From NCBI GenBank assembly GCA_963850905.1, contig CAWKMU010000003.1, positions 1,792,001 through 1,856,000 of the forward strand: a stretch of 64,000 nt of DNA. The letters run 5' to 3'. The notes below the pieces were generated by a model. The model had not been told where the DNA came from. It was given only the letters and a program-made list of their open reading frames with translations, and did no database searches. Shown here one piece after another: positions 3,120 to 46,740 of this stretch. The DNA comes from an uncultured Gemmatimonadales bacterium. Lineage in GTDB: Bacteria; Gemmatimonadota; Gemmatimonadetes; Gemmatimonadales; Gemmatimonadaceae. The translations under genes were made by a program, and so were the position numbers. The first letter of the stretch is position 1; every line of letters starts with the position of its first letter.

Positions 3120-5165
3120 ATGCGACTCAGGACGGCAACGACGACGGAGTGGGCGCTCCTTTGTGCGATGGCGTCTGCAGGGGCATTCACGGGGAGCGCA
3201 GCCGGCGCGCAGCGTGACACCCGACCGGCGGCCACGACGCCACCAGTTCTCTCCGCCGACCAGCTCTTGTCGGTCAGTAGTATGGTAGGCGGCCGCGACG
3301 AGCCCGTGTGGGACGCGGACGGCTCGCACGTCACCTTTCTCGGCAGCTTTGGCGGTCCGCTCGGCATCTGGTCGATTCCCGCCTCGGGCGGACCGGCGAC
3401 GCTCCTCGTCCGCGACGTATCGCTGAGCGGCATGGACTACACCGCGGGGCAGCGCCCGATCTGGTCTCCGCGTGGGGAGTATCTCGCCTATGTCACATCG
3501 AAAGGGGGCGATGCGCCGGAGATCTGGTTGTGGTCGCCCCGGACCGGCGCGGACGTGCAGCTGACGCACATGGGCGGCGGCGTCTACTCCATGAACTGGT
3601 CGCCGGACGGCGCGCATATCGCGTTCTCCGACGATCGATACGGGAGCCAGGACATCTACACGGTTGCCGTCCCGACCGGCGACGTGGTCAGGCTCACCAG
3701 CGATTCACGCTACGAGGTATTCCCGACGTGGACGCCCGACAGCCGCACGGTCCTGTACGATCGGCTCGATCCGCGATGGGTGCGGCATGACGTCATGGCC
3801 GTGCCCGTCGATGGATCGACGCCACCGCGGCTCGTCGTCACGGAGTCGGAATTCTTCGACTATCGGGGCGGTGCGGCGTTCGGGTACTCGCCGGTGTCTG
3901 CAGATGGCCAGCGCGTGTTGATCCGATCGCAGCGGTCGGGATGGCTCAACTACTGGGCCGTGCCGCTCTCTGGTGGTGAACCACGGGCTGTCGCGCCCGA
4001 GGCGGCGGAGCAGAGCGAGGGGGCGTGGTCGCCCGACGGGAAGTGGATTGCCTACATCTCAAATCACAACGGCACGAAGGGTTTGTACGTCGTGGGCGCC
4101 ACGGGCGGCTCACCTCGTGCCTTGGTCTCGCCGACAGACGGCGTTGTCTCGCGGATCGGTTGGTCGCCAGACGGCACAAGGATCAGCTACACGTTCGGGA
4201 CTGTGACGACAACGGCGGATCTCTACACGGTTGATGTGAAGACCGGTCGCACCACACAGCTCACGTTCTCGATGCCAGCTGGGCTCGCGACTGCCGGTCT
4301 GATCACGCCGCGCAAGGTCACGTATCCGAGCGCGGACGGCTACACCATCTCCGCGTACCTATACGAGCCGCGCGGTCTCAAGCCCGGGGAGAAAGCGCCA
4401 GGTATCATGTGGATCCATGGCGGCCCGACGGGGCAATGGATCGACAGCTATCAGGCGCAAGTGCAGTACTTCGCGAACCGGGGCTACGCCGTGTTATTGC
4501 CCAACATCCGGGGCAGCTCAGGCTACGGACGGGTGTTCGAAGACGCGAACAACGGGTGCTGGGGGCATTGTGACCTCAAGGATGTCCTCGCCGGGGTCGA
4601 GTACCTGAAGCGACAGGGGTTCGTGAACGCCGACAAGATGGGGATTCACGGCGTGAGCTACGGCGGGTGCATGAGCATGTCAGCAGTCGCGTTCGCGCCG
4701 GGCATCTTCCAGGCGGCGATCCCCGAGTCGGGGTACGGCGATTGGGTACGCTTCCACGAGTACAACAACGAAATGCAGCACAACCAGTTGCTGGCGTACG
4801 AGTTCGGCCCGCTTCCGGACAGCGAGGCCGTGTATCGGCGGAACTCGCCGATCTACAGCGTTGCGGACGTTACGACGCCCACGTTCCTCATTCATGGCGA
4901 GGGCGTGACGTCGGCGTGGCGGCCGGCGGAGCTGCCTGTGCCCGCGTCGCTCGATTTCGCGCGAGCGCTCGACGCGCACTACAAGGCGTTCCGCTACAAA
5001 ACCTACCCGGGCGAGACCTACTATATCACCTCCCGTGAGAACATTCGGGTCAAGCTCGGCGACATGCTCGCGTTCTTCGATCAATACCTGAAGGACGGAC
5101 TGCGCACGGCGCCGTCGGCCACGGTCGTGACGACCGTGTCGGCCGCCACGAGCGGGGGGCGGTGA
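3120..5165 (+). CDS. S9-family (prolyl oligopeptidase/acylaminoacyl peptidase-like) protein with TolB/PD40 propeller and non-canonical triad
   Basis: RBS AAGGAGG before ATG 3120; signal peptide; repeated WSPDG; IHGGP, PNIRGSSGYG and GVSYGG motifs. Confidence 0.88.
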   Translation: MRLRTATTTEWALLCAMASAGAFTGSAAGAQRDTRPAATTPPVLSADQLLSVSSMVGGRDEPVWDADGSHVTFLGSFGGPLGIWSIPASGGPATLLVRDVSLSGMDYTAGQRPIWSPRGEYLAYVTSKGGDAPEIWLWSPRTGADVQLTHMGGGVYSMNWSPDGAHIAFSDDRYGSQDIYTVAVPTGDVVRLTSDSRYEVFPTWTPDSRTVLYDRLDPRWVRHDVMAVPVDGSTPPRLVVTESEFFDYRGGAAFGYSPVSADGQRVLIRSQRSGWLNYWAVPLSGGEPRAVAPEAAEQSEGAWSPDGKWIAYISNHNGTKGLYVVGATGGSPRALVSPTDGVVSRIGWSPDGTRISYTFGTVTTTADLYTVDVKTGRTTQLTFSMPAGLATAGLITPRKVTYPSADGYTISAYLYEPRGLKPGEKAPGIMWIHGGPTGQWIDSYQAQVQYFANRGYAVLLPNIRGSSGYGRVFEDANNGCWGHCDLKDVLAGVEYLKRQGFVNADKMGIHGVSYGGCMSMSAVAFAPGIFQAAIPESGYGDWVRFHEYNNEMQHNQLLAYEFGPLPDSEAVYRRNSPIYSVADVTTPTFLIHGEGVTSAWRPAELPVPASLDFARALDAHYKAFRYKTYPGETYYITSRENIRVKLGDMLAFFDQYLKDGLRTAPSATVVTTVSAATSGGR

Positions 5166-32712: not shown

Positions 32713-35700
32713 ATGGCGGACACGTTGCGAGAACAGCTCCAGGCGAGCCTGGGGTCGACCTATACGATCGGCCGGGAGCTTGGAGGCGGAGGGGATGAGC
32801 CGCGTATTCGTGGCGGATGACACGACCCTCGGGCGTGCCGTCGTCGTCAAGGTGCTCTCGCCGGAGCTCACCGCGGGTGTCAACGTCGACCGCTTCAAGC
32901 GCGAGATCCGGGTCGCGGCCCGATTGCAGCACCCGCACATCGTGCCGGTCCTGCAGTCCGGCGAGACCAACGGGCTGCCGTATTTCACGATGCCCTTCGT
33001 GGAGGGCGAGTCGCTGCGTGCGCACCTCGGACGCACGGGCCCGCTCTCCATTGGCGATGCGGTCTCGATTCTGCGCGACGTGGCGAAGGCCCTGGAGTAC
33101 GCTCATGCGCGCGACGTCGTGCATCGGGACATCAAGCCTGACAACGTGCTGCTGGCGGGGAACGCGGCCGTCGTCACAGACTTCGGCATCGCCAAGGCGC
33201 TCTCGGCGTCCAAGACACAGCCGTCTGGCGCGACGCTGACCCAAGCGGGGACATCGCTCGGGACACCGGCCTACATGGCACCGGAGCAGGCAGCCGCCGA
33301 TCCGGCGACGGACCATCGCGCGGACATCTACGCCTTCGGGATTCTCGCCTACGAGCTACTCGCGGGGCAACCGCCCTTTGCGGGTCGGACGCCGCAGAAG
33401 CTGCTGGCGGCCCAACTTGGCGAGCGACCAACGCCGATCGACAGTGTCCGCGCGGACGTGCCGCTAATGCTCGGCGAGCTGATCATGCGGTGTCTGGAGA
33501 AGAGCGCCGACGACCGGCCACAGAGTGCGGCCGCGCTGGTACGCGCGCTCGGCGCCGTGACCACGAGTGGCAGCGAGCGATCGGCCCCCGCGCTGCTCCT
33601 GGGCGGGCGAGCCGCGCTGCGGAACGCGCTTCTCATCTACGGCGCGGCGTTCCTCATCATCGCGCTTGCTGCCCGCATCGCGACCAACGAGATCGGGCTC
33701 CCTGATTGGGTGTTTCCCGGCGCGATCATCGTCATGCTGCTCGGGCTCCCGGTGATCCTGTTCACCGGGTACGTCCAGCGGACGGTGCAACGGTCGTTGA
33801 CGTCCACGCCGACGTTTACGCCGGGTGGCACCCCGGCGCCCGCCTCGACAATGGCGACGATCGCGCTCAAGGCGAGTCCGCACGTGAGCTGGCGCCGCAC
33901 CACCACCGGCGGAGTGGTTGCGCTTGGCGTGCTCGTGCTGCTCGTCACGGGGTACATGATCCTGCGTGCGCTCGGTATCGGACCCGCAGGGTCGCTGCTC
34001 GGCGCAGGGAAGATCCATGCGCGGGACAGGCTCATCGTGACCGACTTCCATGCGCTGAGCGGCGACACGTCGCTGGCGGGCGCGGCTAGCGAAGCCGTCC
34101 GCACGGATCTCAGTGAATCGGGTGTGATCTCGCTGCTCACGCCAGCTGAAGTTGCGAGCACGCTGCGTCTCATGCAGCGTCCGGCGTCGACACACGTCGA
34201 CGTGTTGGTTGCAGCGGACGTGGCGGCGCGACAGGGCGCGAAGGGCATCGTCAATGGGACTATCACTGGACTGGGTGCCGGCTATCTGCTCACGTTACGG
34301 CTCCTGAGCCCATCGGGCAGTGAGCTCGCATCCTTTCATGAAGAAGCGGACGGGCCGCACGAGCTGTTGCCGACGCTGGACCGTCTTGCGCGGCATCTGC
34401 GCGAGAAGATCGGGGAGTCGCTCAAGAGCGTGCATGCCGATCCGCCGCTCGAGCAGGTAACGACCTCGTCGATCAATGCCTTGCGGAAGTACGACGAAGG
34501 GGCCAGAGCGAACGACATCAATGGTAACTACGAGGTGGCCATCGCGCGCCTCCGGGAGGCTGTGGCGCTGGACACAGGCTTTGCCATGGCCTGGCGCAAG
34601 CTGGGTGTCGCGATGAGCAACTCGTTCATGCCGCGGGCCAGCGTCGACAGCGCCTTGACGCAGGCCTATCGCCATCGGGATCACTTGACGGAGCGAGAGC
34701 GCGACATGGCGGTGGGCTCTTACTTCAACCAAGGCCCGGGGCGCAATCGCGAGGAAGCGGCGACAGCCTTCCGGGCGATGCTCGCGATGGATCCCACTGA
34801 CTATGTGGCACTCAACGATCTGGCCATCACCTACCTAGATCGCCGTCGGTACGCCGCAGCGGACACGCTGTTCCGTCGCTCAGTCGCGACGGGGAAGGGT
34901 GGCGCGATCGACCTGGGCAATCTGGCCTTCGTTGAGCTTAGCGAGGGAGACACCGCGGCCGTTCGACGCGATGCCGCGACCATGCGTGAGCGATACCCCA
35001 ACGCCGCCGGCGCTCCCTTCTTGGGAGTCGGGTTGCTGTACGACTCGAACCAGTTGGACTCGCTTGTTGCCTTGCTTACGCAGATCCGAACGGATCCGCG
35101 ACCCGACCGGCGGAGCCTGGCCACGCATCTGCTCGCGGCCATGGCGTTGGTCCGCGGACGGCCCAACGAGTGGGCCGCCCTCAACGGAGAGTCGCGGCGA
35201 ACGGATGCGGAGCGCGGTGCCGCGCCGCCCCCGTTGGTTGACTCCATGTTGGCGGCCTGGACGGACATCTCTCTCCGTGGTCAGCCCGCTCGCGGTGTCG
35301 CGCGCCTCGATGCCATGCTCGCGCGGACGCCACTCGCCTCGGTGGGAGCGGAGGATCGACCGTATTTCCAGATTGCCGGGGCGTACGCCATCGCCGGTCG
35401 GCCGGACCGGGCGCGGGCGATACTCTCGGAGTACGCCGGAGAGGTCAAGGACACGGTGAAGCTCCGCGACGATGCGCCGGACATGCACGGCGTGCTTGGC
35501 GAGATTGCGCTCGCCGAGCACCGTCCCAAGGACGCGCACCGCGAATTCGCGCGCGCGGACACCGCCTTTGACGGGGAGCCCGTGCCCTGCGAGATCTGCT
35601 TCCCGCTAGCCGCTGGTCGTGCATACGACGCCGCGGGCAATCGTGATTCCGCGATCATGATGTATGAACGCTATCAACACGCCTGGAGACGCGACCTGCG

Positions 35701-35896
35701 CCTCAGCGTCGAACCCTGGTATCGATCGTTGGTTTACAAGCGCTTGGGCGAACTGTACGACGACAGGGGCGACGTCCCGCGGGCCACGGCCAACTACCGA
35801 CAGTTCATCGCGCTGTGGCAGAACGCGGAGCCAGAGCTGCAGCCAGCCGTGAGCGACGCCCGGCGCCGCCTGGCGAAACTGGGGTCGGATCGGTAG
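32713..35896 (+). CDS. Hanks-type Ser/Thr protein kinase with TM segments and TPR-like C-terminus, +1 frameshift at 32791-32794
   Basis: ATG 32713 gives MADTLREQLQASLGSTYTIGRELGGGG, then one extra G before MSRVF. HRDIKPDN, DFGIAK and GTPAYMAPEQ present. Confidence 0.92.
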
Positions 35897-38317: not shown

Positions 38318-38890
38318 ATGCGTATCGCTGTGCTGACTATCTCGGACGCCGGGGTTCGAGGGGAACGAGCGGACACATCCGGGGACACGATCGTGGCTTG
38401 GGGGACGGCGCGTGGGGATGTCGTGACACAACGTGCAATCGTGGGGGACGAACCGGCTGAGATCGCCGCGCGGCTAGCGACGTGGTGCGACGCCGATGTG
38501 GCTGACCTCGTGTTGACCACGGGCGGGACGGGGCTGAGTGAGCGGGATGTGACACCCGAAGCCACGCGCGCGGTGATTGAGCGGGAGGCACCAGGGATCG
38601 CGGAGCGGATTCGCGCGCTCTGCCTCACGAGCTTCCCGAGGGCCGCGCTCTCGCGTGGCATGGCTGGGGTCCGTTCGCGGACGCTCATTGTGAATCTGGC
38701 CGGATCGACAAGCGGTGTTCGGGACGCCCTCGTTGCCCTCGACCCGATCATTACCCATGGGATCGACATCCTGCGTGGAGGACCGACGGATCACACGGCG
38801 GGAGGACGGGCGTCCAGCGGCCACACGGCTCGGAGCGGGCCTCCGGTCGGTACGAGCCCGGGCGGGTTGGCCGCGAGGCGCGATCCATGA
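38318..38890 (+). CDS. mog: MogA/MoaB molybdopterin adenylyltransferase
   Basis: LTISD, DTSG, TTGGTG..RDVTPEA, LSRG and IVNLAGS. Confidence 0.9.
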   Translation: MRIAVLTISDAGVRGERADTSGDTIVAWGTARGDVVTQRAIVGDEPAEIAARLATWCDADVADLVLTTGGTGLSERDVTPEATRAVIEREAPGIAERIRALCLTSFPRAALSRGMAGVRSRTLIVNLAGSTSGVRDALVALDPIITHGIDILRGGPTDHTAGGRASSGHTARSGPPVGTSPGGLAARRDP

Positions 38891-40533
38891 ACGTTGCCGT
38901 GATGCTGACGGACGTCGAGCCCGCGGTCCGGCTCAACGCGCTGCTGGAACGGTCGGGTGCCAAGACCGAGGTCATCTCGCCGCTCGACGACGTGCGCGGG
39001 ATCCTCGGTCGCACCCGCGCCGACGTATTGGTCATGACCGGTGCGCTGCTCGATCCCCAGAACGTCGCGCTGGTGCGCGAGCAACTGTGGACCGGGACCG
39101 CGGTCATCGGCCTCTCCGACGTGGGTGAGGAGGGGATGGTCGAGCGACTGCGGGCGCTGGGGTACAGCGAGGTCTATATCAAGCCAGTCGTGCCCGAGGA
39201 GGTTGCGGCAGGTGTGAGACGCCTCGCAGACCGGCAGGTGGTGGCGCGCGAGACGGGGCTGTACGGTGACTCCGAAGGGATCCGCGAGGTGCTGGTCAAG
39301 GTTGAGCAGATGGCGCCAGTATCCAGCACGGTACTGATCGAGGGTGAGAGTGGAACAGGGAAGGAACTGGTGGCGAGGGCGATGCACCGACTGGGGCCCC
39401 GCCGCACGCGCCCGTTCATCGCTGTCAACGTCGGGGCGTTGCCCGAGACTCTGCTCGAGAGCGAGCTCTTCGGTCACGAGAAGGGCGCCTTCACGGGGGC
39501 GGCTGAGCGGCGGATCGGTCGCTTCGAGCTGGCGGATACGGGGCACCCTCTTTCTCGACGAGATCGGCGACATCCCACTCTCGACCCAGGTCAAGCTGCT
39601 GCGCGTGCTCGAGGAGCGGGTCAGTCACACGGGTCGGGGGGACGCGAGCCGATAGCGGTGGACGTACGCGTGATCACGGCGACCAATCGGCCGCTTCGCG
39701 ACCAGGTCGCTGAGGGCACCTTCCGGTCGGACCTCTACTACCGGATCAACGTCCTGAGCGTCTACCTCCCTCCACTCCGGGAGCGGCGGGAGGATATCCC
39801 CATTCTCGTCCGGCGGTTTATCCAGGAGTTCTCGGCGCAGCACGACCGGCCGTTCCACGGCATCTCAGGGGACGCGTTGCAGATGCTGGTGGACTACAGC
39901 TGGCCGGGGAACGTGCGCGAACTGCGCAATCTCGTGGAGAGTATGGTGGTGCTGTCGCCAGGCCATGAGATCCAGTCGGCGGACATTCCGCGCGAGATCC
40001 GGGAGGTTGGGTCGCGCTTTCTGCCGGTCCACGTAGGGCCCTTGGCCCGTGGCAGGGACGGTGCGGGCGGTCGGGAGATGGAGTTCATTGTCCGGAGTTT
40101 GGTGGAGCTCAAGCTGCAGGTCGAGGAGTTGCGACGCCGAACCGAGCAGGTTGCAGTGACGGGGGGCACCGGTCAATTGAGCTTTGGAGCTTCGATCGGC
40201 GCCGGCCAATCCCAGGCCATTGGCCCCGGCACCCCAACGGGTGCGGCTGGCGCCAGTAGTGGCGTGATGGTGCGCGAGGGAATTGCTGCGCCGGGTGCTC
40301 CGCCGCCTCCAAACGTCGTGACGGTTAGCCCGGGGATGACCATGGCGCAGATCGAGCGCGCGGCGATCGAAGCGGCGCTCAGAGAGACCCGGGGCAACCG
40401 CCGCCGTGCGGCGGAGATGTTGGGGATTGGCGAGAGGACGCTTTACAGAAAACTGCGGGAGTACGAAATCCCGGAGGGTGCGGGGGCGGAGGGGCCCGAG
40501 AGGGTTGACCTACTGGGAGTGGAAGGCAGGTAG
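38887..40533 (+). CDS. Sigma-54-dependent activator (degenerate REC-AAA+-Fis HTH) with three internal +1 insertions
   Basis: [31 protein letters not shown] and Fis HTH. Walker [10 protein letters not shown] sits in an alternate frame at about 39542-39620. Confidence 0.92.
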
Positions 40534-40770: not shown

Positions 40771-41706
40771 TTGCCCGCTGCAGTTAGCCTTTCCCCTAGT
40801 TCTGGGGGACAGTCGCACACGCCGATCGCCGGGAGCGTGCTCCCGATCCGGCGCGCTGAAGAATTGCTGACGACGCTGCCGGGCATTCTTTCGGCGAAGA
40901 TCGTGGCGTCGGCGAGCGGGGCTGTGGACGAGATCCACGTCCTGACGACAGCCGAATATACACCGAAGCAAACCGTCCGCAACATCGAGAGCGCGCTCAT
41001 CGCGCATCTCGGGATGCGCGTGGACCATCGGAAAATCTCAGTCGCAGCGAGCTCGGAGCGGCCGGTTGCGGCCGTGCCTCCGGTAGCCGTCGAGCCTCCG
41101 GTGACGCCAGCGTCGACCCCAACCCCTCCCAGCGCGGCTGCGCAGAGCTCGGCTCCGTCCGCGGCGCCTCGCCCATCAGGCCCAGTGGCGGTTCCCGAGG
41201 AAGCCCCTCCGCCGGTTGCGCAGGTGCGCGAGCGGGTGGTGGCCCGCGGGGTCGAGTTCGAGGAACTGGTGCGGGAGGTGGACTCGACGCTGGCCGCGGT
41301 AGTACCCGAGGAGGCGGCGCGGCGACGACTGTATTTCGAAGATGTGGAGGTCCGCCGGTCGCGGGCTCGCGGAGTGATGTGTCGGGTGACGCTCAGGAAG
41401 GGCGATCAGTCCTACACGGGAGAAGCGGAAGGTTTGGAGGGGGCTCGCGCGCGGGTGGACCTGGCCGCGCGCGCGGCGCTCAAGGCGATCGGCCAGGCCG
41501 AGCGCGGTGAGCGGACCCTCGCCCTCGACGGGGTAAAGCTGATCCAGGCGTTCGACCGAGAGTTCGTATTCGTCGGAGTGGCAGCGCAAGAGGGGCGGGA
41601 GCGCGCACTCTTGACCGGCAGCTGTGAAGTACGGGAGAGTCCCGAGCAAGCGAGCGTCTTAGCAGCGTTGGACGCGACCAACCGTTGGATCGCGCACGGC
41701 CGCTAG
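40771..41706 (+). CDS. Conserved hypothetical protein (EIHVL..PKQTVRNIES..DHRKISVA N-domain, Pro/Ala linker, LeuA-regulatory-like C-domain)
   Basis: Recognisable family motif; C-terminal ASVLAALDATNR. Start codon uncertain. Confidence 0.8.
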   Translation: MPAAVSLSPSSGGQSHTPIAGSVLPIRRAEELLTTLPGILSAKIVASASGAVDEIHVLTTAEYTPKQTVRNIESALIAHLGMRVDHRKISVAASSERPVAAVPPVAVEPPVTPASTPTPPSAAAQSSAPSAAPRPSGPVAVPEEAPPPVAQVRERVVARGVEFEELVREVDSTLAAVVPEEAARRRLYFEDVEVRRSRARGVMCRVTLRKGDQSYTGEAEGLEGARARVDLAARAALKAIGQAERGERTLALDGVKLIQAFDREFVFVGVAAQEGRERALLTGSCEVRESPEQASVLAALDATNRWIAHGR

Positions 41707-42059
41707 CACTCGTTGAGGCAGAGGGTGCGCGCCGGGAGGGGATGACGAGATGGCGATCCGGGCGGCTCGGTGGGCCGCCCGTCATCGCTACAGGGACAGG
41801 GGACTAGGGGCTGCGGTCAGGGCGCGACGACAACGATTAGCCAGTGTGAACCAAAGCGCACGGTCACGAAGGCAATGTTTGGACGTGAACGGGACAGAGG
41901 AGCAGTGAACCCAACCCACATCGTTTGACAACTGAACCCCCGTCTGGCCCGAGCTGAGCGAAGCGGGCAGGCCACGTAGGTGAGCGGAGCCAACCTTCAA
42001 TTGGCACGACTCAGCGAGCGCTGAGCGTGACTGCACGAGAGAGGGGGTGACGCAATCCG

Positions 42060-42149
42060 ATGTTTCTGGCCAACCCGTCGAAAAGTTTCATGAGCCGCGT
42101 TTTTGGCTTTTTTAGCATGATGCTGGGAGAAGTATTCGACGTATTGTAG
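42060..42149 (+). CDS. Unannotated small peptide MFLANPSKSFMSRVFGFFSMMLGEVFDVL (alternative start 42090)
   Basis: ATG 42060 to TAG 42149, preceded by GAGGGGGTGA SD. Ends 39 nt before the HD-GYP start. Absent from the supplied ORF track. Confidence 0.65.
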   Translation: MFLANPSKSFMSRVFGFFSMMLGEVFDVL

Positions 42150-42188
42150 GCATCAACGAATTGCCGGGCGGGGGTTCCTTCGGGCTCT

Positions 42189-43512
42189 ATGAGCAACAAG
42201 GTCAGAGCATTCGTCGCGGCGGTAGTCGTAGGAGCTGCTTGCGGACTAGCTGCACTGATTGCCGGCGGAGATCCCATCACAGTCCGCTCGGCGCAGGCCG
42301 CGGCATGTTTTGCATGCCTTGGAATACTTGCACAATTCCTTTCGTATAGCGTGGACGGGAAGCGAGCCTCCACGGTTCTGCTCATACCGTATCTGTCGAC
42401 CATCTGACTTGGCGCCCACTTGGGTCGCGCTCGCGGCCATCGGCGGAGTTGCAACCGTCGGCGCAGTCATCATGAAGAGGTCTGCACTGAAAAGCACCTT
42501 CAATGTCTGCAAGACATTGCTAAGTGGCGCCCTTGCGATCGCGGTATATCGGGCTTTAGGCGGCACGGCGTGGTTAGTGCGATTCGACTTTAACTGGTTC
42601 GCTTACGTCGGGGCATACGCAACGTACCTGCTGGTCAACAACCTCCTTGTTGCGACCTTTCTGCGCCTTCAGGATGACGAGAGCCTGATCGGCGTCTTGC
42701 TGAGGTGGCCGGGAAGCTCGCTCGTTTATGACCTCCTGATGATTCCGATGGCGTATCTGTTTGCCGTCGTGTACCTCAGATTTGGTCCACTCGGAGCAAT
42801 GGCACTGGGGCTTCCCCTGCTGGCGGTTCGACAGCTTTACAAGACGAACTGGCAACTCGTCCGCGTGAACCAAGAGCTGCTTGAACTCATGGTCGCGGCG
42901 ATTGAGGCGCGAGACCCTTATACGTCGGGTCATTCGAGGCGAGTGGCGCGAAACGCCCGCATCATCGGACGCGCGCTGGGCCTTTCATCACGCGATGTGG
43001 ATCGTGTTGCGATCGCAGGTCTTCTTCACGACGTAGGCAAGATTCATGAGGTGTTCGCGCCGCTTCTGAGGAAGCCCGGCAAGCTCTCGCCTGAAGAGCG
43101 CTTGACGATGGAAACGCATCCCATCAAGAGCGCGGAGCTTGTGCAAAACGTATCGCATCTAGGCGATCTGGTTGCGGTGATCCGAAACCATCACGAAAAC
43201 TGGGATGGGACGGGCTATCCTGATGGACTAGGAGGAGAGGAAATTCCCCTTTTGTCTCGAATCATCATGATCGCCGATACGGTCGACGCGATGACAACCG
43301 ACCGACCCTACCGCGCCGCGATGGGAGAAGCGGAGGTTCGCGCAGAGCTACTCAGACTAAGCGGGAAGCAGTTTGATCCCGTGATGTGCGAGAAGCTTTT
43401 GGCGAGCACTCTCTACCCATCTTTGTTTGAGCGCCAATTAGCGAAGACGCCAGGCGAGATCCATTTGCTCCGCCGGCGAAGCCTTGGGGTGCGGGCGGCG
43501 ACGGGTTCGTAA
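42189..43512 (+). CDS. Multi-TM sensor HD-GYP phosphodiesterase, +1 frameshift at about 42405-42408
   Basis: Hydrophobic N-terminus in the 42189 frame continues as LAPTW in the 42259 frame. RDPYTSGHS, LHDVGK, HHENWDGTGYP and DAMTTDRPYR present. Confidence 0.9.
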
Positions 43513-43647
43513 GAGAAACGCCCGATCAGGCTTTGGGCAACGTGGAGGTTGCGTGTTCAAACCCAACGCATCCTCGGACCGTCACACTGCTTTCTCTCGC
43601 TTGGGGCAGCCAACTCGACGCAATACAACCCACCTGTGCCGAGTCAC

Positions 43648-46600
43648 CTACTGAAGAGCCTTGGCTAGAAACTTGGGCAAGGGTGAGCGCTCGCGCCGCT
43701 CGAACTCGACATAGTGCTGCAACAGCTTGATTGCCTTCTCACTTTCGCCTGACCTGTCACGAAGTGCCCACATTGCATACGCGGCAAAGTCCTGTCGGCC
43801 GGTTCTACTAGCGTGCCTGAAGGCGGTCTCAAACTCTTGCCTGTGGTGAAACTCCTCACCCGCGGCGAGTTGTGAAGTTGCCAGGATGGCGTAAGCTGCG
43901 CTCCTGAAGCGGAAGCATGACAGGTCGGCCCATCCGGCATAGTCGCGAAAGTCCTTCAGCGCCTCGTCACTCGGTCGGTCCTCTAGCAAACCAATTTGCG
44001 CCTGTGTGGCGTGGTACCTGCCGATCCTGGTTTCGCCATCCGGTGGGGCTGAGACTTCCTGACAAGCCGCTATCCAATCCTTTGCCGCTTCGAAGTTGCC
44101 CTCCTGAAAATAGCTCTTGAACAGACCTTCGGTGGCGGTGACTGCGGCACCGACGAGACCACACTCAGTGGCTATAGCCCGTTCTTCGGCCTGTAGGAGT
44201 CGAGCGCTCGTCAAGTCACCGAGGTAGACAAGGGGGGCTGACGCGTATTTGAGGGCTCGAATCAACTCGGTGACATTGTTGCTTCGTCTGCCCAGTGTGA
44301 CTAGGGCGCGTCCGGCCGCTACGCCCGCCTCCAAATCTCCGAAGATCGAGTGATAGAGGATTTCCGCCGTCAACTGGTGCTGTAGCAACTCATCTCCCCC
44401 ACCGACCAACTGTTTTACAACCAAGTGAGCCTCGGTTGCAGCTTGGGAGTCAGGGAGATTGAAGGCGAGCGACTGCGCCAACACACCTGCTTGGGCTCGG
44501 TGAAGTGGTGAGGCTTTGACACTCCGCACGCACCGCATCAACTTGCGCAACAATTCGTCGCCTTGACCGGTTGCGTACCATTTGGCTTCGAGAACGGCCA
44601 GTTCGGTGTCGTCATGCTCATGCTCGATTGGGTGACCGTCGGCGTTTTCACTGGCTGTCTCGGAAGCGACGCACAGCATCCTGTGCCACATTTGCGCTTC
44701 ACGAAGGCACACTATTAGTCCGCTGCGGATCTGTCTTTCACGCTCAGGATTCAGCGGCGTCAACTCGCGGGCGCGCTCCCAAATCGCGATCGCCTCGTTC
44801 GCAAAACCAAGCTGTAGGGCGTGGTCCGCGCACTTGGACATCAGCCTTGCCGCCGCCTCGACTTTGCGGGCTGCCCTGAGATGCTCGGCGCTGTCCCAGA
44901 GCAGCGACCCGTAATTCGTCGGCGTCAGATCCGCCTCGAGCACCTGGCCGATTCGCTCGTGCAGGAATTGGCCTGCCGTCGGGGAGAGCGATGCGAGCGC
45001 GGCCTCGGACAGCAGATCGTGCTTCGCATAGACAGCCTCGCCGTCGCACTTGAGGACCGATTGCGCGTCTAGGGCCTCCAATGCGTCGAGGACGTCGAGG
45101 CGGCGAAGATCGAGCACGCGCTCGAGCCGGTCCAGGGTGGAGTTCTTGCCGAGCAACGCACACACCTGCAGCACGCGCAAGGATTTTGGCGAGAGTTGCG
45201 AAAGCCTGCCGTCGATCGCCGCCAAGATCGACTGCGGGGGCGATTTCGTCGCCCCCTTCATGGCCCAGTGCGCCGCGAGCTCGCGCAGGAAATATGGGTT
45301 GCCCTCCGCGAGGCTGGCGTATCGCTCCACGACGTCGCGAGCGGGTGGTGCCGCACTGGAACCGGTCAGGGCGGCGAAGTGCTCGACAGACTCTGCATGC
45401 GACAGCGGGAGCACTTCCTGTAGCTGGAGTCCCGGCACAACGCCGCCAAGCACACCGTCCGGTGCAGGCGGCGTGCGTCCCGCGAGGAGCACCATGAGGC
45501 GGCGGTGAGCCGAGCGCCCGACCAATTCCCGAATCAGCTCCGTCGAATACGTGTCCATCCAATGAGCGTCGTCCACGACGATGAGGAGCGTGGTCTCCTC
45601 ACAGATTGCATCGATCAGCTCGAGCAGCGCCTGCCTGACGGCGGCGCATGCCGCTGGTGCGTCCGCTGCCTCCACCTGTAGTTGCTCGAGAAATCGGTTG
45701 CTGGGCTCGCGGGGGTGGCTCAGGCACAACAGATATTGGCGCGATCGCGGCGCGCATCCCAGCGCGCCCGGCATATCGAGGAGACCGTGTATGAGGTCGC
45801 AGAACACTGACAACGGTCGGCTGGAATCGCTGCGCTGACTCACCGTCCTCTGAATGCGCACGCCATCGAGCGCGGCCACCCGTGCGACCTCCAGCGCCAC
45901 TCTGCTCTTGCCGATGCCAGCGGGCCCCCAGAGGTAACAGATGTTGCCGCGTCCCGATTTGGCCGAGCGCAACTGGGTGGTCAGCCATGTCAGCGTTGAC
46001 TCCCGTCCGACCAGTGGGGACGCGGGCCCGGGTTCGTACGCCTGCGGCAAGCGTTCAGTAATCCGCTTTCGCAGGATCGTCGCTGGCAGGCGAATCTCAT
46101 TGGGGGCCGCACCCAGTTCGGACGTGTAGCGGTCGAGGATGGAGATGGCCTCGAGCTTGTTGCCGACCAGCGCGGTCGATTCCGCCAACGCGAGCGTCGC
46201 TTCTTCGTTGAACGGATCGAGCTCCAGACACCTTCGGGCAGCGTCGGCGGCTTCAGGCCACCGATTCAGTCGTCTGAACGTCGATGCATCTCGCAGCAAC
46301 GAGAGCCGGAGCCGCGAGTGCACGCCGCTCCGGACTCGGTCGAGCCATTCGGCAAACGCGGGGGAGAAATTCGGCGCGTAGCCTGGTAAGAATCCCCGCG
46401 CCGCGCGGGCGGGGGTCGGTGTCGCCGAGAGGTCGCCCTCGTAGTCCAGCCACACCATGCTTGCGGGAAGGCGCAGGTGACTCGGCGCATGTTCGAGCGG
46501 AAAACCCAGAGACCTGAGAACGTAGGCGAGGTGGCGCAGGGAATGTCGCGCTTTGGACTCGGGAAACTGCGGCCAGAACAGCTCCGCAAGATGTTGCCGG

Positions 46601-46740
46601 CCCAAGTCGGCATCGCGCTCGATCGCGAGGTACAACGCGAACGCGAAACGCATCTCCGCCTCCGGGCACACACGCGTTGCTCCGACTTCGACAACGCACC
46701 TGCCCATCGACCACAGACGGACCCGAGGGTGTGATGCCAT
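43648..46740 (-). CDS. BTAD + AAA(STAND) ATPase + TPR-like transcriptional regulator
   Basis: LAELFWP..ARHSLRH, LELDPFNEEA, Walker A GPAGIGKS, Walker B LIVVDDAHW and GNPYFLREL. Confidence 0.88.
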   Translation of the reverse strand: MASHPRVRLWSMGRCVVEVGATRVCPEAEMRFAFALYLAIERDADLGRQHLAELFWPQFPESKARHSLRHLAYVLRSLGFPLEHAPSHLRLPASMVWLDYEGDLSATPTPARAARGFLPGYAPNFSPAFAEWLDRVRSGVHSRLRLSLLRDASTFRRLNRWPEAADAARRCLELDPFNEEATLALAESTALVGNKLEAISILDRYTSELGAAPNEIRLPATILRKRITERLPQAYEPGPASPLVGRESTLTWLTTQLRSAKSGRGNICYLWGPAGIGKSRVALEVARVAALDGVRIQRTVSQRSDSSRPLSVFCDLIHGLLDMPGALGCAPRSRQYLLCLSHPREPSNRFLEQLQVEAADAPAACAAVRQALLELIDAICEETTLLIVVDDAHWMDTYSTELIRELVGRSAHRRLMVLLAGRTPPAPDGVLGGVVPGLQLQEVLPLSHAESVEHFAALTGSSAAPPARDVVERYASLAEGNPYFLRELAAHWAMKGATKSPPQSILAAIDGRLSQLSPKSLRVLQVCALLGKNSTLDRLERVLDLRRLDVLDALEALDAQSVLKCDGEAVYAKHDLLSEAALASLSPTAGQFLHERIGQVLEADLTPTNYGSLLWDSAEHLRAARKVEAAARLMSKCADHALQLGFANEAIAIWERARELTPLNPERERQIRSGLIVCLREAQMWHRMLCVASETASENADGHPIEHEHDDTELAVLEAKWYATGQGDELLRKLMRCVRSVKASPLHRAQAGVLAQSLAFNLPDSQAATEAHLVVKQLVGGGDELLQHQLTAEILYHSIFGDLEAGVAAGRALVTLGRRSNNVTELIRALKYASAPLVYLGDLTSARLLQAEERAIATECGLVGAAVTATEGLFKSYFQEGNFEAAKDWIAACQEVSAPPDGETRIGRYHATQAQIGLLEDRPSDEALKDFRDYAGWADLSCFRFRSAAYAILATSQLAAGEEFHHRQEFETAFRHASRTGRQDFAAYAMWALRDRSGESEKAIKLLQHYVEFERRERSPLPKFLAKALQ

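Follow-up and report, generated by a model that had tools for sequence, protein, structure and literature searches.

A 29-codon open reading frame (ORF) in the window, the whole 64,000-nucleotide stretch that was analysed, is a real and conserved gene evolving as coding sequence, as its alignments indicate, and together with a structured leader RNA and a membrane HD-GYP gene it travels as one unit among the related loci compared. The RNA architecture, which the first-pass annotation had missed, suggests that HD-GYP translation is controlled in cis: the small ORF probably gates production of the HD-GYP enzyme, and its peptide may bind that enzyme in the membrane. The features of the locus are as follows.

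38887..40533, plus strand: sigma-54-dependent activator, with a receiver-like N-terminus, an AAA+ domain and a Fis-type HTH
40771..41706, plus strand: hyp, a 311-aa ORF for a conserved two-domain protein of unknown function
41934..41948, plus strand: strand A, GAACCCCCGUCUGGC, 5' half of the enclosing helix (minimum-free-energy fold, RNAalifold, duplex energies, flank pairs)
41949..42059, plus strand: leader core (alignments, covariation, GAGCG enrichment)
Starts at 41956, 41982, 42016 and 42023, plus strand: GAGCG motifs of the leader core
41982..41991, plus strand: invariant block GAGCGGAGCC (leader alignments)
42005..42029, plus strand: covarying hairpin (leader alignments, covariation test)
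42043..42053, plus strand: invariant block GGGGGUGACGC, the small-ORF Shine-Dalgarno site, predicted to pair with 41982-41995
42060..42149, plus strand: small ORF, 29 codons, product MFLANPSKSFMSRVFGFFSMMLGEVFDVL, member of a conserved micro-protein family
42163..42177, plus strand: strand D, GCCGGGCGGGGGUUC, 3' half of the enclosing helix (fold, RNAalifold, duplex energies, flank pairs)
42189..43512, plus strand: MASE9-HD-GYP phosphodiesterase gene, frame broken by one extra base near 42407
43648..46740, minus strand: convergent regulator, 1030 aa, with a winged-helix/BTAD-like N-terminus, an AAA_16 NTPase and a TPR-like C-terminus

The protein genes of the locus

All of the parts described in the first-pass annotation are present in the window sequence, with corrections to several of them. 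The HD-GYP translation carries LLHDVGK, HHENWDGTGYP and DAMTTDRPYR, and the HD, HHExxDGxGYP and DAM..RPYR motifs are readable as reported; the protein matches the Pfam family HD_5 with an E value of 1.6e-34. The frame 42259-43512 is however only the downstream piece of a gene that starts at the ATG at 42189, the N-terminal 72 codons lying in 42189-42407. DNA comparison with two congeners places an extra base near 42407, which results in an in-frame TGA. On the broken window protein MASE9 scores 17.5 bits, under the cut-off of 24.3, and on an intact 437-aa ortholog 27.3 bits, over it. The sigma-54 activator is likewise present upstream (Sigma54_activat, 2.2e-47, plus AAA_lid_14 and HTH_8), but single bases inserted at three sites over some 120 nt (about 39540-39660), evident in a DNA alignment with four relatives, garble about 35 residues of its reading frame. 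The extra bases in both genes are probably assembly errors. An activator homolog lies 5' of hyp wherever the fetched stretch reaches.

The regulator is indeed convergent on the HD-GYP gene and its AAA_16 domain is clear (Pfam, 2.2e-19), whereas BTAD is found only below threshold (17.5 against 22.1 bits). A convergent homolog adjoins that gene in all 20 of a further set of loci and in four of six earlier ones, 24 loci in all. Hyp gave no match to a Pfam or NCBIfam family; it has 4514 homologs, and none among the 120 matches listed is named past 'hypothetical protein'. A structure model (pLDDT 75.6) suggests a ferredoxin-like N-domain (about residues 22-93; VIA-align Z 8-9 against the C-terminal domains of CDF transporters) joined by a variable Pro/Ala-rich linker to a C-domain (residues 185-308) that would have the fold of LeuA/citramalate-synthase regulatory domains (VIA-align Z 9.2 against 3f6g_B, rmsd 3.3 over 110 residues; Foldseek E 1e-4 against LeuA).

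The small ORF is a conserved gene

The small ORF, which is unannotated, codes for 29 aa in the window. Its proposed tie to the membrane HD-GYP gene was borne out, since 64 of 69 fetched loci have a small ORF in this position, the five misses being four contig ends that cut the locus and one false pattern hit, as do 17 of 18 loci that are more distant, a recurrence that by this count exceeds chance. The resulting family spans 81 loci and 78 distinct peptides of 15-39 aa, with an ATG start in 75 of the 81; Gemmatimonadota peptides have a modal length of 23 aa and are of 15-24 aa in most loci. As described earlier, a Shine-Dalgarno sequence, GGGGGTGA, precedes the ORF (42043-42050), but at 9-12 nt the ATG is somewhat far from it; most relatives have their start only 2-4 nt past GGTGACGC.

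The alignment consensus is MxFLAxLVxxxxxFVLxDxxxWx. Tryptophan is the last or second-last residue in 67 of the 78 distinct peptides; the window peptide is without a terminal Trp and its genus partly so, a minority within the family. The peptides are hydrophobic and amphipathic, with a hydrophobic pattern that is kept across genera along the whole length; those of Gemmatimonadota are short, lack positive charges at their flanks and are in many cases acidic, a combination atypical of a membrane-spanning helix. Congeners keep the reading frame despite divergence, and differences at first, second and third codon positions number 167, 111 and 254, a predominance of third positions that is coding-like. 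In length alone the ORF could be a functionless product of chance in a long 5' untranslated region, 29 open codons being not rare at 66% G+C, where 13 kb holds 160 ORFs of at least 25 aa. This explanation, to which we attach a negligible probability, is already contradicted by the constancy of position in 81 loci, the fixed distance of the start from an invariant Shine-Dalgarno block, the conserved C-terminal Trp and the coding-type substitutions.

Small ORF, leader and HD-GYP gene form one unit

A homolog of hyp lies upstream of the leader and small ORF in 67 of 68 motif loci and an HD-GYP homolog downstream in 63, all of the misses being contig ends; among 18 more distant loci the corresponding counts are 17 and 15. 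Three congeners have jointly lost the leader, the small ORF and the HD-GYP gene and retain hyp and the convergent regulator. In the loci examined the unit is single-copy and its gene context constant across a bacterial class. The conserved block consists of a MoCF-domain gene, the sigma-54 activator, hyp, the small ORF, the HD-GYP gene and the regulator, and the four protein genes are syntenic.

Two of the four HD-GYP loci inspected outside the phylum, on a Natranaerobius plasmid (Bacillota) and in a Nonomuraea record (Actinomycetota), have a Trp-ended hydrophobic small ORF directly before a related membrane HD-GYP gene, without the leader or the helix of Gemmatimonadota. The plasmid locus also has a hyp homolog, and the association of the EIHVL..DHRKISVA family with HD-GYP genes, which the first-pass annotation had mentioned, holds even there. 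In the other two, from Bacillus mycoides and Thermus thermophilus pTT27, no such small ORF was found.

The strict adjacency of peptide gene and membrane sensor gene had been likened to peptide quorum sensing, in which the HD-GYP transmembrane domain would detect an exported peptide on the outside and the output would be a second messenger. The hydrophobic, amphipathic character of the peptide is in keeping with this, and ABC pumps in other bacteria can export leaderless amphipathic peptides. Nevertheless, the peptides showed neither a signal peptide nor a double-glycine leader, and no modification pattern of conserved Cys, Ser or Thr, there is one copy per genome, and a search of the conserved block found no exporter, peptidase or modification gene, so that the quorum-sensing layout is unsupported. 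Moreover, the RNA design couples synthesis of the peptide to that of its supposed receptor, which fits a subunit better than a diffusible signal. We consider quorum sensing improbable, and the interpretation offered with the first-pass annotation is, overall, partly supported.

A structured leader and a long-range helix

A folded leader of about 130 nt lies 5' of the small ORF. In the window it folds with z = -3.1, and all three helices are present in the minimum-free-energy structure. The motif GAGCG occurs 2.97 times per leader against 0.47 expected. Rfam, searched with the window leader at E values up to 10, returned no family and only two chance lncRNA matches (E >2). The leader has one strong match only in its own genome, and a leader model matches directly after hyp in 39 of 43 named Gemmatimonadales loci. 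In the stem of the hairpin both sides change in four of five pairs, 97.1% of stem cells are paired against 86.8% in shuffles, and the covariation score, calculated with kinship between sequences ignored, is 0.270 against 0.092 in shuffles (0/500) and at most 0.065 in slid controls. Leader helices 1 and 2 hardly vary; the bases on both sides of the pairing between GAGCGGAGCC and the Shine-Dalgarno site are invariant, so covariation is near-silent for or against it.

The small ORF is enclosed by a 15-bp helix, 41934-41948/42163-42177, which also covers the G-run before the HD-GYP start. This G-run, in strand D, lies 14 nt 5' of the HD-GYP ATG in the window and is the sole Shine-Dalgarno-like stretch there. 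Across 63 loci the mean energy of the cognate duplex is -31.6 kcal/mol, compared with -26.1 ± 0.5 kcal/mol with 3' strands permuted (0/2000; kinship ignored), and flanking positions are canonical in 67.0% of cases compared with 54.5 ± 1.5% (0/2000; kinship ignored). In some genera the strands are entirely different in sequence yet complementary. By these comparative measures, the strands of the enclosing helix covary across genera, and the leader hairpin covaries as well.

Strand D begins at the stop codon of the small ORF in most genera and within 6 nt of it in 48 of 63 loci. In the window genus it begins 11-12 nt past the stop in two of three usable loci (L001 and L008) and at -2 in L003, so here the small ORF and the HD-GYP gene would be coupled more loosely. 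From the G-run to the putative HD-GYP start downstream the median distance is 12.5 nt, and to many such starts it is 10-19 nt, a long spacing for a Shine-Dalgarno site. Start codons were assigned mechanically.

Fold-back pairing also silences mRNAs of type I toxins of the hok type, and here a short hydrophobic peptide is combined with a leader whose 5' end base-pairs with nucleotides located 3' of the small ORF and with a Shine-Dalgarno site sequestered in the predicted fold. A toxin for which the HD-GYP adjacency was incidental is nonetheless very improbable: the gene is always single-copy in the same context across a bacterial class, it is lost jointly with the HD-GYP gene, and what the 3' helix strand covers is the start region of the next gene, not an mRNA 3' end.

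Proposed control of the HD-GYP enzyme

The explanation we favour, and think somewhat more probable than its negation, is that translation of the small ORF melts the helix hiding the HD-GYP ribosome site and that the peptide likely also acts on the membrane sensor. Pairing of GAGCGGAGCC..CC with the small-ORF Shine-Dalgarno site would place translation of the small ORF under the control of a signal that acts on the leader; candidate signals are a small molecule and a GAGCG-repeat-binding protein, which might be the product of the adjacent hyp. A ribosome at the small-ORF stop codon would unwind strand D and free the G-run and the HD-GYP start codon, and the enzyme would thus be made only together with the peptide.

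The peptide might instead have no role after release and act purely in cis, the Trp by the stop codon pausing or arresting the terminating ribosome and so holding the helix open, with a small molecule or the supply of Trp-tRNA as a possible cue; TnaC, SecM and the Erm leader peptides act by such pausing. The best-conserved feature is indeed the C-terminal Trp (67/78), the stop codon lies inside or abuts the helix over the downstream start region, and at 15-24 aa most of the peptides would fit wholly within the ribosomal tunnel at termination. Conservation of the hydrophobic pattern over the whole length, the partial lack of Trp in the window genus and the Trp-ended ORFs that two other phyla have beside related HD-GYP genes, with neither leader nor helix, speak against it, and we know of no arrest motif evident in the peptides. 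We regard a purely cis-acting leader peptide as unlikely, if credible.

The arrangement resembles the ermC/ermB, cat/cmlA, secM-secA, mifM-yidC2 and tnaC leaders, in which a leader ORF controls a helix-held downstream ribosome-binding site: a short ORF lies directly upstream of the regulated gene, the next start is held in a helix which, by prediction here, would be unwound by a ribosome standing on the final leader-ORF codons, and a conserved peptide feature stands beside the stop codon. It differs in that the helix is long-range and encloses the whole leader and small ORF, the small-ORF Shine-Dalgarno site belongs to another structured domain, which is invariant and carries GAGCG repeats, the gene under control encodes a c-di-GMP phosphodiesterase, stalling is hypothetical, and other phyla keep the peptide family but have no such helix. 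Class I and II c-di-GMP riboswitches, which often precede c-di-GMP turnover genes, share with it a conserved structured 5' leader before a c-di-GMP enzyme gene and a ribosome site in a helix (predicted here); unlike them, this leader has no Rfam match or known ligand and is predicted to control the small ORF first. The peptide itself recalls MgrB and SafA, which act on PhoQ, and KdpF, AcrZ and CydX, small membrane-protein modulators of sensors or transporters that are hydrophobic, under 50 aa, unannotated and co-inherited beside a multi-pass membrane partner; the Gemmatimonadota peptides differ in being only 15-29 aa long, often acidic and without flanking positive charges, and in having a MASE9-HD-GYP enzyme as putative partner. 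We know of no small subunit described for such enzymes, and our literature search found no paper describing the arrangement of small ORF, leader and HD-GYP gene.

The domain architecture is that of Thermotoga maritima TM1467 and Streptomyces venezuelae HdgA (bioRxiv 10.1101/2021.11.05.467447), given the intact ortholog over the MASE9 cut-off and the HD-GYP motifs; the four passages of that paper that use the term MASE9 mention neither a micro-gene upstream nor a leader RNA, nor a partner of the hyp kind. The same paper, which defines MASE9, proposes intramembrane ligand binding, and we count this in favour of the peptide as a partner. Persistence of the peptide family in other phyla without the helix suggests, moreover, a role for the free peptide. 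Under the favoured explanation, the hydrophobic, amphipathic, Trp-ended peptide would be a modulator or small subunit associated with the MASE9 domain, and the expected output would be altered hydrolysis of c-di-GMP or a related dinucleotide.

Arrangement of the locus

The genes and reading frames considered here are arranged in the window as follows:

32780-35896, Ser/Thr protein kinase-TPR gene
38318-38890, gene with a MoCF_biosynth domain (MogA/CinA-like), overlapping the start of the sigma-54 activator gene by 4 nt
38887-40533, + strand, sigma-54 activator (Sigma54_activat domain, 2.2e-47)
40771-41706, + strand, hyp, a 311-residue ORF without a known family
41707-42188, + strand, intergenic gap of 482 nt containing a 29-codon small ORF at 42060-42149
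42189-43512, + strand, HD-GYP gene, encoding a membrane phosphodiesterase
43648-46740, - strand, convergent gene of a 1030-residue AAA_16/TPR protein, the regulator

The G+C content, about 66% over the whole window, is 57.5% at approximately 42000-44500 compared with 65-68% on both flanks, and this low-G+C stretch spans the RNA leader of the small ORF and the HD-GYP gene as well as the convergent regulator gene's 3' half. The placing of the MoCF_biosynth gene 5' of the sigma-54 activator is kept in all six of the relatives' loci compared. In several other genera (L140, L142, L153 and L018), the Ser/Thr kinase-TPR gene is a near neighbour of the AAA/TPR regulator, and in the window it lies on the opposite side of the block.

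The small ORF family

Relatives of the locus were located by means of a two-block DNA pattern drawn from the gap, which matched 146 of 401 genomes of the order and 101 of 187 in the window's own family; many of the matches in the other two families are to an unrelated 76-nt coding match. Sixty of the family matches, picked by eye for sequence diversity, and nine added loci give the 69 loci compared. One of these, L006, belongs to a genome marked as unpublished (G016); it supplies one row of the counts, and none of the claims rests on it.

The first-pass annotation had proposed a search for small ORFs upstream of orthologous HD-GYP genes, and such an ORF does recur, starting 2-6 nt after an invariant GGTGACGC in 64 of the 69 loci. 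Four of the five loci without it are cut by contig ends, and the fifth is a false pattern match. A covariance model yielded 18 weaker matches in other families of the class, of which 17 have a small ORF in the corresponding position. Overall, 81 loci encode 78 distinct peptides of 15-39 residues (mode 23), which align with the consensus MxFLAxLVxxxxxFVLxDxxxWx. Tryptophan makes up 6.5% of all small-ORF residues and occupies the penultimate position in 57 peptides and the final one in 12, two being counted in both sets, such that 67 of the 78 end in Trp or Trp-x. The window peptide, which has an extra ANPSKS after MFL, and that of its nearest congener are without this C-terminal tryptophan. Among 35 close pairs of small ORFs, differences fall 167/111/254 by codon position. 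When eight of the peptides were looked up in a collection of 15 billion proteins, one was present, the 39-residue peptide, under the name 'hypothetical protein'. We conclude from comparison of the sequences that the small ORF family is real.

A structured leader with a long-range helix

A conserved element of about 130 nt, the leader, lies between hyp and the small ORF. A search of Rfam 15 with window positions 41600-42400, at E values up to 10, returned only two chance lncRNA matches (E 2.1 and 2.7). In the window's own genome, the leader model, comprising 67 sequences, has a single strong match (94.8 bits), any others having E values of 0.28 or above. It matches 30 of 151 genomes in a class-wide sample and 39 of the 43 named loci among 80 returned, each time directly after hyp. 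In the model-fitted alignment of 83 leaders, 97.1% of cells are paired, compared with 86.8% in shuffles. Covariation scores 0.270 in the alignment and 0.092 in shuffles, none of the 500 shuffles reaching the observed value, and slid controls do not exceed 0.065. In the hairpin at 42005-42029, four of the five basal pairs have changed on both sides. The leader is thus judged, on comparative evidence, to be a new structured RNA with clear covariation.

The segment GAGCGGAGCC..CC (41982-41995) is predicted to pair with the Shine-Dalgarno block GG.GGUGACGC, the bases involved being invariant, and the leader would in this way control access to the ribosome site of the small ORF itself. The motif GAGCG is found 2.97 times per leader, one copy of which is guaranteed by the method used to find the loci, against 0.47 expected from the flanking DNA. 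It lies at 41956, 41982, 42016 and 42023 in the window, and there are three to four copies per leader, often 5 nt apart; these repeats could be sites for an RNA-binding protein.

The leader and the small ORF are enclosed by a long-range helix of 15 bp, in which strand A (41934-41948) pairs with strand D (42163-42177); the fold of the window has a z score of -3.1. In permutation tests over 63 loci, which leave relatedness between the sequences uncorrected, cognate 5' and 3' strands have a mean energy of -31.6 kcal/mol compared with -26.1 +/- 0.5 kcal/mol for permuted strands (0 of 2000), and 67.0% of flank positions are canonical compared with 54.5 +/- 1.5% (0 of 2000), in an ungapped register around the C-run and G-run. 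In some genera, the two strands are entirely different yet complementary. The 3' strand begins within 6 nt of the small ORF stop codon in 48 of the 63 loci, and its G-run precedes the putative HD-GYP start, as called mechanically, by a median of 12.5 nt, with only pyrimidine-rich sequence between. Computationally, the arrangement is that of leader-ORF translational coupling or attenuation, the start region of the HD-GYP gene lying in a covariation-backed helix that overlaps the small ORF end. A ribosome translating the small ORF is predicted to open the enclosing helix, which would license translation of the HD-GYP gene.

A purine box resembling UAGAGGAG is present 8-12 nt 5' of strand A in L062, L063, L064 and other loci. 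Its sequence complements the pyrimidine tract that separates the G-run from the HD-GYP start codon. Pairing of this box in genera of the L062/L063/L064 type would extend the helix up to the start codon.

Conservation of the gene block

The block of genes put forward in the first-pass annotation is conserved in its order. A hyp homologue is present upstream in 67 of the 68 motif loci and an HD-GYP homologue downstream in 63, the loci lacking either flanking gene all being cut by contig ends. A homologue of the regulator converges on the HD-GYP gene in each of 20 further loci for which 5.5 kb of downstream sequence was fetched; in the six loci of an earlier comparison it does so in four, one being rearranged and one having no regulator. 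Three close relatives (L159, L160 and L162, at approximately 3340-3480 of each) lack the leader, the small ORF and the HD-GYP gene altogether, and in them the convergent AAA/TPR regulator directly follows hyp. Since they are absent together, these three elements behave as one unit, a cassette that is a presence/absence polymorphism within the genus. At a further locus, L161, the downstream region is different and contains another Shine-Dalgarno site and a small ORF about 500 nt after hyp. The cassette is also present in records titled Gemmatimonas, so that experiments may be feasible in cultured strains.

No TGGCAC-N5-TTGC-like -24/-12 site recurs at a fixed place 5' of hyp or of the leader in 59 loci. 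The window's TTGGCACGACTCAGCG was considered as a sigma-54 promoter and rejected, because its spacing is wrong and it is not conserved outside the genus. As there is no conserved sigma-54 promoter, the link between the activator and the cassette is purely one of synteny. The regulator had been described as a BTAD-AAA-TPR protein. The AAA_16 assignment is clear; the BTAD label is sub-threshold in Pfam, at 17.5 bits against a cut-off of 22.1 (E 0.0054, residues 110-209), and Trans_reg_C, the OmpR-type winged helix, was not reported in the Pfam search of the 1030-residue protein.

The hyp protein

Homologues of hyp number more than 4500, and the 120 listed are all named 'hypothetical protein'. 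Only unnamed Gemmatimonadota clusters were found for it in the ESM Atlas, a hyp profile had no match among PDB sequences, and the C-terminal domain gave no Pfam match that would place it in LeuA_dimer. The structure was modelled with a pLDDT of 75.6, both domains exceeding 85. The N-terminal domain has the common ferredoxin-like fold. The C-terminal domain superimposes on citramalate synthase (3f6g_B) with a Z score of 9.2 and an rmsd of 3.3 Å for 110 of 115 residues, and it matches LeuA with a Z score of 7.9 (Foldseek E 1e-4). The matched domains are the isoleucine- and leucine-binding regulatory domains of these enzymes, with a duplicated beta-beta-beta-alpha fold. This likeness suggests that hyp may be a ligand-binding regulator, a shared fold not in itself implying function. 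A dsRNA-binding fold, which had been suspected from the sequence, was rejected: Foldseek listed dsRBD proteins only at low probability, with TM scores of 0.17 or below.

The HD-GYP enzyme and its interrupted frame

The HD-GYP protein has the features of an HD-GYP phosphodiesterase, with an HD_5 match in Pfam at 1.6e-34, and the motifs reported as intact from first inspection, LLHDVGK, HHENWDGTGYP and DAMTTDRPYR, can all be read in the translation. Alignment with orthologues begins only at residue 51 of the frame 42259-43512, and the missing N-terminus is encoded in another frame, at 42189-42407. DNA alignment with two congeners traces this to an extra base at about 42407, which creates a TGA, so that in this assembly the membrane and catalytic domains do not share a single uninterrupted frame. 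The broken fragment scores 17.5 bits against MASE9 (PF20972), for which the Pfam gathering cut-off is 24.3 bits. One congener has an intact HD-GYP protein of 437 residues that scores 27.3 bits, and it is through this orthologue, rather than the window fragment, that the enzyme is assigned to MASE9. A search for the family in six frames of the window's own genome gave no match, which is consistent with the broken frame. Another congener has a separate frame break near the 5' end of its HD-GYP gene.

DNA alignment with four relatives places three single-base insertions within about 120 nt of the sigma-54 activator gene (39540-39660). These garble some 35 residues, including a 10-residue stretch that is legible in the relatives, and retain the overall frame. 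A sigma-54 enhancer-binding protein would be expected to have an intact Walker B region and a -24/-12 promoter to act on, and the activator encoded here is a candidate member of that class. Together with the extra base near 42407, the insertions suggest an insertion-prone assembly. Because of them, and because the assembly consists of 6 contigs with a completeness of 82%, we read the HD-GYP frame break as a probable error of this kind; the extra bases in both genes are probably assembly errors.

Related loci outside the phylum

In a tblastn search of plasmid records with the intact orthologue, two matches reach the membrane domain; a search with the MASE9 region alone gave no match in these records. 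Four loci outside the phylum were inspected. On a Natranaerobius thermophilus plasmid (L238, 217-3003), a hyp homologue, whose two domains are matched by BLASTP at 2e-11 and 4e-8, precedes a small ORF of 28-31 residues ending ..FTWGGGG. After the small ORF come an HD-GYP gene, annotated as two overlapping pieces (1205-1402 and 1399-2496), and then a DUF5317 gene. At 1008-1040 of this locus, the leader stretch GAGCGAAGCGG..AGCGGA is similar to the GAGCG repeats. In a Nonomuraea gerenzanensis record, a 451-residue membrane HD-GYP gene is preceded, at a distance of 18 nt, by a small ORF ending ..GVSWT; neither hyp nor a stretch like that of the plasmid leader is present. No such small ORF was found at the Bacillus mycoides and Thermus pTT27 loci. 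The Gemmatimonadota leader model had no match at the Natranaerobius or Nonomuraea loci, and Rfam gave nothing for the Natranaerobius leader.

Discussion

To our knowledge, how membrane HD-GYP enzymes are switched on is largely unknown. Selection acts on the peptide, which also occurs where there is no helix; it therefore likely acts on the MASE9 sensor as well. Co-folding of the peptide with the MASE9 domain (residues 1-215) scored 0.25 against a mark of 0.32, a value that speaks neither for nor against binding, since a partner of fewer than 30 residues is outside the calibration of the tool. In its treatment of MASE9, the paper that defined the domain (bioRxiv 10.1101/2021.11.05.467447) mentions a single MASE9 protein characterised by experiment, and no ligand.

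The peptide had originally been likened to the ligand of a quorum-sensing receptor. This comparison does not hold up well: the peptides begin directly with a hydrophobic segment, and the conserved neighbours of the small ORF, namely the MoCF-domain gene, the sigma-54 activator, hyp, the HD-GYP gene and the AAA/TPR regulator, include no exporter, peptidase or modification enzyme. We therefore consider it unlikely that the peptide serves as a secreted quorum signal, having found neither an export signal in it nor genes for its export or processing in the conserved block.

Beyond a likely action of the peptide on MASE9, a more elaborate and rather improbable scheme may be drawn. Hyp, with its two domains of ligand-binding type and many invariant arginines, would be a metabolite-sensing RNA-binding protein acting at the GAGCG repeats; it would decide whether the micro-protein is translated and hence whether the MASE9-HD-GYP enzyme is made, and the micro-protein would be an intramembrane subunit of that enzyme. 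The trio of hyp, small ORF and HD-GYP gene on the Natranaerobius plasmid, with its GAGCGAAGCGG stretch, would imply that such a three-part circuit predates the phylum. If true, the cassette would represent a novel type of c-di-GMP control circuit with three parts.

In literature searches at the level of listings and abstracts, no such cassette was found for MASE9, for HD-GYP proteins in Gemmatimonadetes, or for small proteins and leader peptides associated with HD-GYP genes. The cassette illustrates the number of small genes that annotation pipelines overlook. In bringing together a co-inherited, unannotated micro-protein family, a new structured RNA and an uncharacterised conserved protein, it offers a testable handle on the control of HD-GYP enzymes.
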